Below are positions 39,855-40,016 of a stretch of DNA of 64,000 nucleotides, piece by piece. The translations under genes were made by a program, and so were the position numbers. The notes beneath the pieces are model-generated. The model did no database searches and was not told where the DNA came from. It was given only the letters and a program-made list of their open reading frames with translations. Each line of letters starts with the position of its first letter. Position 1 is the stretch's first letter. The stretch is from a virus (Duplodnaviria; Caudoviricetes), in the IMG/VR virus record IMGVR_UViG_3300035497_000162, positions 32,001 to 96,000 of that record; one strand, 5' to 3'.

Positions 39855-40016
39855 GAGGTAGTTTATCCCTTTTAAGTACATCGCTACTCGTATAGAGCTT
39901 AGGTGTAAAGTTATGTTATTTGAGGTTTTATATGTATACTAAATAACATAGTAATAAAACGCACTAGATAAAAGAAAATTAAATTTTTTGGTTTTATATG
40001 TATACTAAATAACATA
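39855..40016 (+). CRISPR. guide cassette 3: 70-nt scaffold, repeat, spacer, partial repeat
   Basis: Repeat GTTTTATATGTATACTAAATAACATAGTAATAAAAC at 39925-39960; spacer 39961-39990. Confidence 0.9.

Follow-up and report, generated by a model that had tools for sequence, protein, structure and literature searches.

We analysed a 64,000-nucleotide (nt) stretch of a phage genome (hereafter the window; positions 32,001 to 96,000 of the Caudoviricetes record IMGVR_UViG_3300035497_000162 in IMG/VR), in which small guide-RNA cassettes of a TnpB-family nuclease carry, directly ahead of their first repeat, the sequence ATTTGAG known from the leader end of type II-A CRISPR arrays. The whole record comprises 119,730 bp with a G+C content of 26%, is rated 94% complete and has two ends that overlap by 15 nt. 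Its genes lie on the + strand throughout, and so do the cassettes, their near-self matches and the nuclease gene described below; coordinates refer to the window unless the genome is named. The layout is seen most simply in cassette 3, where a scaffold (39855–39917), comprising stems 1 and 2 and the start of the anti-repeat and showing compensatory base pairs with sister lineages, runs into ATTTGAG (39918–39924) and a 36-nt repeat (39925–39960). This first repeat serves as the reference copy and gives a weak full-length match to the Rfam family CRISPR-DR22; it is followed by a 30-nt spacer (39961–39990) and a degenerate terminal repeat (39991–40026) with 6 mismatches located at the 3' end. A sequence-only reading of this locus had proposed that the anti-repeat doubles as a leader-anchoring site and that the phage borrows the type II-A adaptation machinery of its host to load spacers for an effector of its own. 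The analysis reported here followed up that proposal.

Guide cassettes and their nuclease

The effector gene lies at 8882–10126 and encodes a TnpB-family RNA-guided nuclease of 414 amino acids (aa), the sole copy in the genome, with the Pfam domains HTH_OrfB_IS605, OrfB_IS605 and Cas12f1-like_TNB. Its sequence matches the PDB TnpB entries 8h1j/8bf8 with an expectation value (E) of 1e-32 and LaTranC with an E of 5e-16. Both the RuvC triad and the zinc finger are intact, the DLG, IIED and HDRDxN motifs and the CxxC pairs aligning with those of solved TnpB-type nucleases. There is no Y1 TnpA in the phage genome, and hence the transposon context of IS200/IS605 elements is absent. What is found are the features of type V-U and TranC-like systems, namely a TnpB-derived effector, a same-strand downstream array and an anti-repeat resembling that of a trans-activating CRISPR RNA (tracrRNA); within the window, cassette 2 sits directly downstream of tnpB and the other cassettes are dispersed. 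The proposed borrowing presupposed that the phage has no cas1 or cas2 elsewhere, and indeed no match to Cas1, Cas2 or Csn2 was found at E ≤ 1 in the whole 119.7-kb genome, nor was Cas4 found there. Beside the arrays there is no cas9, cas1, cas2 or csn2, their neighbours being phage genes and tRNA genes.

Ten cassettes sharing a scaffold of ~75 nt are present in the genome, seven of them in the window; of the three outside, one has ATTTGAA, one ATTTGAG and one no motif. ATTTGAG abuts the first repeat at 39918, 43731, 44638 and 44930 (cassettes 3–6), and ATTTGAA does so at 58054 (cassette 7), in agreement with the sequence-only reading. The junction sequence ATTTGANGTTTT occurs five times in the window, compared with 0.19 occurrences expected from shuffles. 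Cassette 4 (43668–43802), between tRNA-Thr and tRNA-Gln, consists of scaffold, ATTTGAG (43731–43737), a single repeat (43738–43773) and a 29-nt guide, with no second repeat. Cassette 5 (44573–44743) has scaffold, ATTTGAG (44638–44644), repeat 1, a 27-nt spacer and repeat 2. Cassette 6 (44867–45167) begins 3 nt past tRNA-Cys and has scaffold, ATTTGAG (44930–44936) and four repeats, the first three identical and the fourth degenerate, around spacers of 30, 27 and 30 nt. The scaffold of cassette 7 (57991–58291) is followed by ATTTGAA (58054–58060) and four repeats with spacers of 27, 30 and 30 nt. Two window cassettes carry no motif: in cassette 1 (8746–8848; scaffold/repeat part 8746–8818) the scaffold passes without a gap into the repeat's 3' 19 nt, there is no anti-repeat, and the guide is flanking DNA. 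Cassette 2 (10137–10280), just past the tnpB stop, has a short anti-repeat hairpin, lacks the 5' half of repeat 1 along with ATTTGAG, and ends with one spacer and a 5'-truncated second repeat. Together with the cassette at genome position 28871, the motif-less cassettes number three in ten, and in all three the 5' half of repeat 1 is gone too. Only cassettes 1 and 4 take flanking DNA as guide; all others have repeat-bounded spacers.

The repeats are 36 nt long, start with GTTTT, end with AAAAC and occur on the + strand only, as had been described. Counted in array order, mismatches to the reference repeat number 0 and 6 in cassette 3, 1 and 4 in cassette 5, 0, 0, 0 and 6 in cassette 6, and 2, 2, 0 and 5 in cassette 7, so that the most degenerate repeat is the distal one in every multi-repeat array of the window, again as first read. 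The earlier statement that most spacers measure 30 nt holds for 5 of the 8 window spacers, the remaining 3 forming an unexpected second class of 27 nt.

Several further features of the cassettes were observed. Between 43589 and 44863, four tRNA genes are interspersed among cassettes 4, 5 and 6, the scaffold of cassette 4 beginning 7 nt past tRNA-Thr; by its gene order this region looks like a natural tRNA–guide RNA array, from which guides would be freed by tRNA processing. Right after the second repeat of cassette 5 lies a piece resembling the 3' half of a tRNA (44744–44781; a T-arm motif, then an acceptor-like end); cassette 5 either stands inside a disrupted tRNA gene or takes a tRNA fragment as its guide. 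At 44129–44175 there is a relic of the repeat's 3' half with 2 mismatches in 19; a further 21 nt lead to tRNA-Asp, and the relic may be a decayed cassette without scaffold. A 15-nt upstream stretch common to five cassettes (8731–8745, 10122–10136, 57976–57990, genome 11845 and genome 28856) holds a TATAAT-like box, which ends ~4 nt ahead of the scaffold. Judged by this box, each of these five is probably transcribed from a promoter of its own; cassettes 4 and 6 instead follow tRNAs. Strain variation was seen at two sites. A strain contig from SRR11792099 is 99.7% identical up to window position 57946 and then diverges (window region compared, 57946–58300), with a different end of the upstream gene and another open reading frame in place of cassette 7; within a single sample, the site is polymorphic. 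Contig L021, from another sample, is identical across 9.8 kb bar a 28-nt deletion (L021 8220 versus window 10740–10767), which shortens the gene downstream of cassette 2 to 138 aa from 223 aa.

A match to the type II-A leader end in the guide RNA hairpin

ATTTGAG is the leader end of group 1 type II-A arrays, found at 87 of 167 loci in 42 genera, including CRISPR1 of Streptococcus thermophilus; the group has 36-nt repeats and the junction GAG/GTTT, the most strongly conserved stretch of II-A junctions (Van Orden et al, 2017, PMC5382924). Adaptation in S. thermophilus needs no more than a leader and one repeat, of which the leader's final 10 bp (including ATTTGA) and the repeat's first bases are indispensable (Wei et al, 2015, PMC4330368). 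The assignment of the motif to this group in the sequence-only reading is thus borne out by both studies. Among 55 distinct II-A leaders compiled here, there was no conserved position upstream of the 7-mer, and the phage therefore matches the whole known leader element. With the type II-A junction of S. thermophilus CRISPR1 (PMC4330368, PMC5382924), the phage arrays share the 7-nt leader end, the GTTT(TA) start, the 36-nt repeat and the 30-nt main spacer class, as well as transcription from the leader into the array, decayed distal repeats and a conserved distal spacer. They differ in that the genome has no cas9, cas1, cas2 or csn2, that the 'leader' is the ~75-nt TnpB guide scaffold, that the repeat interior pairs with a phage anti-repeat rather than with Cas9 tracrRNA, that the guide lies 3' of the repeat, and that the seventh base of the motif varies.

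The structure of the guide RNA was predicted with RNAalifold from five window copies and two copies from sister phages, the latter having been found through their TnpB (52–54% identity) and not through the motif. Three stems make up the consensus, four of whose pairs persist although both partners have changed, and the covariation (U-A to C-G, U-G to U-A) fits the + strand only; for this reason a Cas9-type single guide on the minus strand was rejected. Stem 3 is formed by the upstream, same-strand anti-repeat and positions 17–26 of the first repeat, with the guide 3' of the repeat. In the predicted fold, ATTT makes up the last four pairs of this stem (in cassette 3 with AAAT of repeat 1), and GAG opens a 19-nt loop that takes in repeat positions 1–16. 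On this model the RNA is a TnpB (type V-like) guide in which the first repeat is fused to a tracr-like scaffold. The arrangement of type II-A, where the 5' part of the repeat pairs with the Cas9 tracrRNA and the guide lies 5' of the repeat, was not found. The system is TnpB-derived and type V-like, without an adaptation module and with a putative II-A-type integration site; it is not a II-A locus. The motif-less cassettes, one of them at the canonical site just after tnpB, still look like complete guide RNAs; a cis guide as such therefore does not depend on either the motif or the repeat's 5' half.

Comparison between lineages separates the motif from the pairing in part. In the sister lineage of contig L011, the anti-repeat is extended and pairs with repeat positions 2–15 and beyond, and the old anti-repeat, including ATTTGAT, is predicted to lie in a 19-nt terminal loop; in the lineage of L150 and L013, ATTT is paired as in the window phage. 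ATTTGA and repeat positions 1–8 are constant in all three lineages, positions 9–21 vary, and the stretch from anti-repeat to repeat is the best-conserved part of the RNA between lineages. The predicted pairing thus explains the motif partly in the window and L150/L013 lineages, and the proposal that the anti-repeat doubles as anchor stands for these two, where ATTT closes the stem, and fails for the L011 lineage, where the motif is in the hairpin loop.

These folds bring up a reading in which the motif serves the RNA alone. ATTTGA(N) and GTTTT would be kept as closing pairs and loop of the anti-repeat:repeat hairpin or as a processing site, the cassettes would have spread by duplication, and the II-A match would be a coincidence of AT-rich DNA. 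Spacers would enter otherwise, by another type of host adaptation, recombination between phage arrays or omega-RNA-like capture of flanking DNA. Pairing of ATTT with the AAAT of the repeat in two lineages is what this reading predicts, as are the guide RNAs of cassettes 1, 2 and genome 28871, complete-looking despite the loss of the motif and the 5' half of repeat 1, and strong conservation from anti-repeat to repeat is expected of an effector-bound 3' end. Yet the motif is predicted to lie in an unpaired terminal loop in L011 and in L044 and L063, two loci of a second nuclease family described below, where pairing cannot constrain it, and repeat positions 1–8 are kept in three lineages although they are loop in two, while positions 9–21 vary. 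Taken with the array data that follow, we consider this reading unlikely.

Sister phages, a second nuclease family and type II-A loci

The arrays of the sister phages lie directly downstream of tnpB and consist of 4–8 units. Ahead of repeat 1 stands ATTTGAT (L011 group) or ATTTGAC (L150/L013), then GTTTTATA; the 4–6 spacers per array measure 29–31 nt, mostly 30, the proximal repeats are perfect and the distal units decayed. Contigs L011 and L142 have flanks that are 97–99% identical, and the stretch from the tnpB stop to the next gene differs in a few single-nucleotide polymorphisms and in a clean swap of the scaffold-proximal 30-nt spacer only. In the L144 group, whose flanks are 94–97% identical, six spacers are entirely different and the terminal unit is the same. 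Proximal diversity together with distal conservation, a fixed spacer length and exact repeats is the pattern that a ruler-type integrase working on the scaffold-proximal repeat would leave. A trans-acting integrase is thus very likely somewhere in the phage family, and since the family encodes no such enzyme, it would come from the cell. The swap between L011 and L142, in place and of equal length, is what repeat-mediated recombination would give, in line with the reading by RNA alone; recombination, however, moves spacers and creates none, and uniform spacers of 29–31 nt, perfect proximal repeats and the common distal anchor require an integrase of the ruler type at some place in the family.

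The shared terminal unit deserves a description of its own. Its first 16 nt are the guide of cassette 1 in the window (8819–8834), and the resulting 16–17-nt guide (L011 4428–4445 and 4532–4548; end of the L144 array) is the terminal, sometimes duplicated, spacer of all sister arrays, despite a TnpB identity of only ~54%. Either this guide is an ancestral anchor or selection maintains it; the searches gave no target for it, and the sister spacers had no protospacer in the searched DNA. TnpB relatives in GenBank phages and IMG/VR have at most 33% identity and were unusable for array comparison.

The window phage is present in the metagenomes JGI 3300035495, 3300043077 and 3300043003, SRR11792099 and SRR11792166, its sisters in ERZ28614030, ERZ28614423, ERZ28614065 and ERZ28436112. 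The arrays of the window phage behave differently from those of its sisters. They are identical in contigs from five samples (99.98–100% over the arrays), with no gain seen, and are therefore uninformative on polarity. Polarised spacer gain, as foreseen in the sequence-only reading, accordingly has support from the sister phages, which differ at the scaffold-proximal end and share a distal anchor, and none from the window phage. Its arrays look largely frozen, because they are identical in five samples, have odd spacer lengths and have lost the motif in three of ten cassettes. The identity of repeats 1 and 2 in cassettes 6, 7 and genome 11860, on the other hand, suggests fairly recent duplications of repeat 1.

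These observations bear on the possibility that the junction is a relic. An ancestor of the TnpB system would have captured a host II-A array or been loaded by II-A enzymes in the past, the leader end and repeat termini would be inherited, and the arrays of the window phage would no longer grow, being fixed guide cassettes copied around the genome. The unchanging arrays agree with this, one strain differing only by the lack of cassette 7 at that site, and so do the short arrays (0–3 spacers) with irregular spacer lengths, the three motif-less cassettes, the dispersal of cassettes, partly into a tRNA cluster, and two near-self spacers; insertion beside a pre-existing array is also one listed origin of TnpB-linked arrays (PNAS 2023, PMC10691335). 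But ATTTGA with GTTTTATA has been kept in lineages whose TnpB proteins are only 52–54% identical, though the surrounding loop changed, and recent proximal turnover in the sister phages and the duplications of repeat 1 do not suit an array that has ceased to grow. We judge a mere relic to be improbable.

The spacers themselves gave few leads. No protospacer was found for the window spacers in GenBank phages, nor for three spacer cores in IMG/VR. The only protospacer-like sites are near-self: 39192–39221, in the gene just upstream of cassette 3, matches the cassette 3 spacer at 28 of 30 bases (mismatches at guide positions 2–3), and 1969–1998 matches the third spacer of cassette 6, likewise at 28/30. 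No protospacer-adjacent motif (PAM) or transposon-adjacent motif (TAM) could be derived from these two sites, and the target gene at 38640–39812 has no relative in IMG/VR. Homology between spacers was seen in one pair only, spacers 1 (58097–58123, 27 nt) and 2 (58160–58189, 30 nt) of cassette 7, which align by their 3' ends with 21 of 27 bases identical. Of the six mismatches, four keep to every third base (alignment positions 3, 9, 12 and 15), as for two alleles of one coding site. Neither has a match in the phage genome. The register of this pair, a single case, would suit 3'-motif-anchored acquisition from two alleles of one gene.

The host is probably a low-G+C Firmicute, since the phage encodes a T4-type portal and a Gp23-type capsid protein, its nearest capsid proteins are those of Firmicutes myoviruses (34–38% identity), and SpoVG-like and SpoVS-like genes are present. 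Candidate II-A loci were sought in metagenomes with the pattern ATTTGAG + GTTTTA + 25 nt + AAAAC + 28–32 nt + GTTTTA, which matched at least 120 loci; the figures that follow are among the matches listed. By tblastn, II-A cas genes were found at 78 loci, and in two AT-rich ones, L024 (26% G+C) and L128, Csn2, Cas2 and the PAM-interacting domain of Cas9 were confirmed by Pfam. The loci contain 58 distinct repeats, several of which (L024-type) begin with GTTTTA and finish with the 13 nt ATAGTAATAAAAC, just as the phage repeat does. The best identity to any of them was 27/36 for the window repeat and 29/36 for that of its sister L011. When the constrained repeat ends were held fixed and the interior was shuffled, p was 0.015 (window) and 0.0005 (L011); mean identity to the II-A repeat set was 22.4 and 24.2, respectively, compared with 18.7 for the shuffles. 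This likeness is confined to the two ends; the middle, which binds the phage anti-repeat, differs, as would be expected, on sequence grounds, of a repeat that fits the II-A integrase and has a different RNA partner. Repeat ends that come closer to real II-A repeats than shuffles do also tell against a coincidence of AT-rich DNA. Two viral hits to the repeat patterns (L002 and L003) were rejected as chance single matches without an array.

A likeness to II-A repeats would also be expected if the phage RNAs were decoys for host crRNA (CRISPR RNA) or tracrRNA rather than an integration site, the 3' 20 nt of the repeat resembling a tracrRNA anti-repeat and the phage anti-repeat a II-A repeat. The best Rfam match, to CRISPR-DR22, is full length and sub-threshold (20.6 bits versus a gathering score of 50), and we take the consensus of that family, by the S. 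pyogenes repeat, to read as a II-A repeat in the opposite orientation. Compared in reverse, the phage repeat matches II-A repeats no less well than in direct orientation (28/36, p 0.002), and subversion of Cas9 by phage single-guide RNAs has been reported (bioRxiv 10.64898/2026.06.01.729453). However, II-A repeats are quasi-palindromic, which explains the likeness in both orientations; the cassettes sit with their cognate TnpB, have the guide at the 3' end and covary on the + strand only; and ATTTGAG, outside any RNA duplex with host RNAs, is left unexplained. Such mimicry seems to us highly improbable.

The junction scan also brought to light a second family of nucleases. Six of the listed loci (L044, L108, L063, L027, L093 and L107; four repeat types) carry, on AT-rich, phage-like contigs, TnpB/Cas12f-like proteins of a family, P0155 (493 aa; family ~490 aa; cluster of 331 members), whose members are 32–41% identical to one another and align with the window TnpB in the TNB domain only. 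No II-A genes were found in the available stretch of these loci. Each has a scaffold-fused mini-array with one or two 30-nt spacers that begins with ATTTGAG, located upstream of the gene in L063 and downstream in the other five. The predicted folds of L044 and L063 show a structured scaffold and an anti-repeat:repeat hairpin with a loop ending in ATTTGAG, followed by repeat 1, a 30-nt spacer and repeat 2; in L027 and L093, where perfect complements reach at most 7 and 6 nt, no comparable anti-repeat stem was found. One scaffold is common to L044 and L108, whose spacers differ, and tRNA genes follow the L108 array, as in the window. Going by these folds, the motif-in-hairpin layout shows itself not peculiar to one protein family. 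Sampled without selection for the motif, the P0155 family yielded two loci only, L151 with an array and L152 without. In L151 (IMG/VR contig, 330–1140), the relative, 58% identical to P0155, lies just downstream of an array with 30-nt repeats and 36–37-nt spacers, a geometry that presumably resembles clostridial type I-B arrays.

Other parts of the window were also annotated. Three paralogous GIY-YIG/NUMOD3 homing-endonuclease-like genes (46287–47126, 48398–49171 and 52481–53188; repeat families D7, D10 and D13) lie amid the packaging and head genes. The intergenic region 25451–25577 holds 5–6 exact tandem copies of a 21-nt unit with an iteron-like look. A conserved intergenic element of 45–68 nt stands ahead of several genes (23829–23906, 26797–26852, 28252–28329 and 51784–51851; families D9, D11 and D12) and, from its recurrence, may be a phage promoter or regulatory site. 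C5 and N6/N4 DNA methyltransferases, an ArdA-like anti-restriction protein and a GroEL-like chaperonin are encoded within 2845–7645 and 19740–21227.

Origin of the spacers and relation to known systems

As the best explanation of these findings, we propose that the arrays of the phage family are loaded in trans by the II-A adaptation module of the host, a functional reading to which we assign a probability of roughly 0.45. Type II-A is the best candidate because of the exact leader end, the repeat start, the repeat length, the main spacer length, the II-A-like repeat ends and the probable Firmicute host; we infer that the integrase is the host II-A enzyme and that integration is still ongoing. 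ATTTGA(G) at repeat 1 would then be a group 1 II-A leader–repeat junction set inside the 3' hairpin of a TnpB guide scaffold. The phage would supply its own effector and tracr-like scaffold and no integrase, and host Cas1-Cas2, with Csn2 and Cas9, would recognise the leader end and the GTTTT start, measure 36 bp and duplicate repeat 1. The new spacer would land right behind the scaffold-joined repeat, so that the newest spacer would become the cis-fused single guide, and older spacers would shift distally and would have to pair in trans with an anti-repeat. Tentatively, the P0155 loci may extend this to a class: phage TnpB-derived nucleases of at least two unrelated families would parasitise host II-A adaptation through a leader anchor and repeat ends placed in a single-guide hairpin loop, each spacer inserted by the host automatically becoming a cis-fused guide.

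A number of findings weigh against loading by the host. The first concern the motif. Five window cassettes are paralogous, their scaffold and first repeat being 64–94% identical, and the recurrence of ATTTGAG therefore reflects common descent and counts as one observation, not five. ATTT doubles as the end of the anti-repeat stem in this lineage, so that its conservation would follow from RNA pairing alone; the seventh base differs among lineages, being G, A, T or C; and the six P0155 loci were selected by the motif itself and therefore give no measure of its conservation. Others concern the guides. Cassettes 1 and 4 have guides without a second repeat, and that of cassette 4 stops exactly at the start of tRNA-Gln; guide installation is therefore possible without an integrase. 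Genome-wide, 4 of 15 spacers measure 27 nt and one 23 nt, whereas among 1673 reference spacers from the listed II-A loci 93% measure 30 nt and a single one 27 nt; the sister spacers, by contrast, agree in length with this reference set. The varying seventh base, the guides lacking a second repeat and the short spacers are equally points in favour of a motif that serves the RNA alone.

The remaining objections concern the host and the use of the spacers. With the phage's own records excluded, neither a degenerate pattern of the phage repeat nor two of its 3' halves, suitably spaced, revealed an array with this repeat among 185,579 representative genomes, in IMG/VR or in the JGI metagenomes. None of the 1673 II-A spacers matches the phage, the best hit (22/25) being noise, and there is therefore no host link between these II-A loci and the phage. 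In vivo, II-A adaptation needs Cas9 and picks protospacers with a PAM on the 3' side, and TnpB reads a TAM on the 5' side; most II-A-loaded spacers would therefore be useless to TnpB. To these is added the absence of gain in the window phage. The borrowing of host II-A adaptation put forward in the sequence-only reading thus draws support from the junction, the missing adaptation genes, the similar II-A loci and the polarity in the sister phages, and is held back by the odd spacer lengths, the missing array with the phage repeat and the unchanged window arrays. A host II-A locus with a similar repeat, likewise expected, was found in part, as AT-rich loci with the same leader end and repeat termini and not as an array with the phage's own repeat.

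Arrangements that resemble parts of this one are known. The viruses SPV1 and SPV2 carry mini-CRISPR arrays with host-like leaders and with spacers against sister viruses (Medvedeva et al, 2019, PMC6858448). Like the phage arrays, they have 1–3 spacers, a cell-like leader and repeat, no cas1 or cas2, turnover between close relatives, and spacers aimed at near relatives, including an allele of an adjacent gene. They differ in that SPV1 and SPV2 need host Cas proteins for interference too and have full host-type repeats, whereas here the nuclease and scaffold are the phage's own, only the integration signals are host-like, and the borrowed type (II-A) is not that of the effector (TnpB, type V-like). 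In Flavobacterium columnare, a VI-B array uses the Cas1 of a II-C system, a dependence shown by deletion of cas1 (Hoikkala et al, 2021, PMC8092290). There, as proposed here, an array without its own cas1 and cas2 relies on the integrase of another type, with a common 36-bp repeat length and common repeat-end motifs; both systems, however, lie on one chromosome, while here the donor would be the host and the recipient the phage.

TnpB-linked arrays without adaptation genes have been described as well (Altae-Tran et al, 2023, PMC10691335). With TnpB omega RNA, TranC and type V-U systems (PMC10691335; LaTranC, PDB 9jfo), the phage shares a compact nuclease of TnpB fold, a scaffold from the 3' end of the gene, a guide at the RNA 3' end, a CRISPR-like array downstream and the lack of an adaptation module. 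Unlike them, it has no transposon ends and no TnpA, one nuclease serves ten dispersed cassettes, and the first repeat is joined to the scaffold through a hairpin whose loop is a II-A-type leader–repeat junction. Phage-borne miniature Cas12 systems (Cas12 hacker/V-P) are also on record (bioRxiv 10.1101/2025.01.20.633832) and likewise combine small type V-like effectors with arrays, no cas1 or cas2 and a presumed aim at rival elements. The hacker effectors, however, measure 500–800 aa, their tracrRNA is separate or missing, and no host adaptation type or anchoring motif has been described for them. CasPhi and Cas-lambda are further phage-encoded miniature Cas12 effectors. Our literature search found no description of a TnpB-type guide scaffold with a II-A leader–repeat junction in its hairpin, nor of host adaptation of one type that supplies a phage effector belonging to a different type.

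Where TnpB-derived and miniature type V systems without cas1 and cas2 obtain their spacers is an open question, as is the way in which arrays became attached to omega RNAs. If the proposal is true, it would give a testable answer for one family, in which the array is the substrate of another CRISPR type encoded by the host genome. With the integration signal written into a guide-RNA hairpin, the evolution from TnpB to Cas12 would be linked to II-A adaptation, the phage would exploit the formation of host immune memory in its conflicts with rival phages, and a scaffold-fused guide renewed by a heterologous integrase would be a natural design. Even without integration by the host, the sister arrays document a rapid, polarised turnover of spacers in a phage TnpB system.

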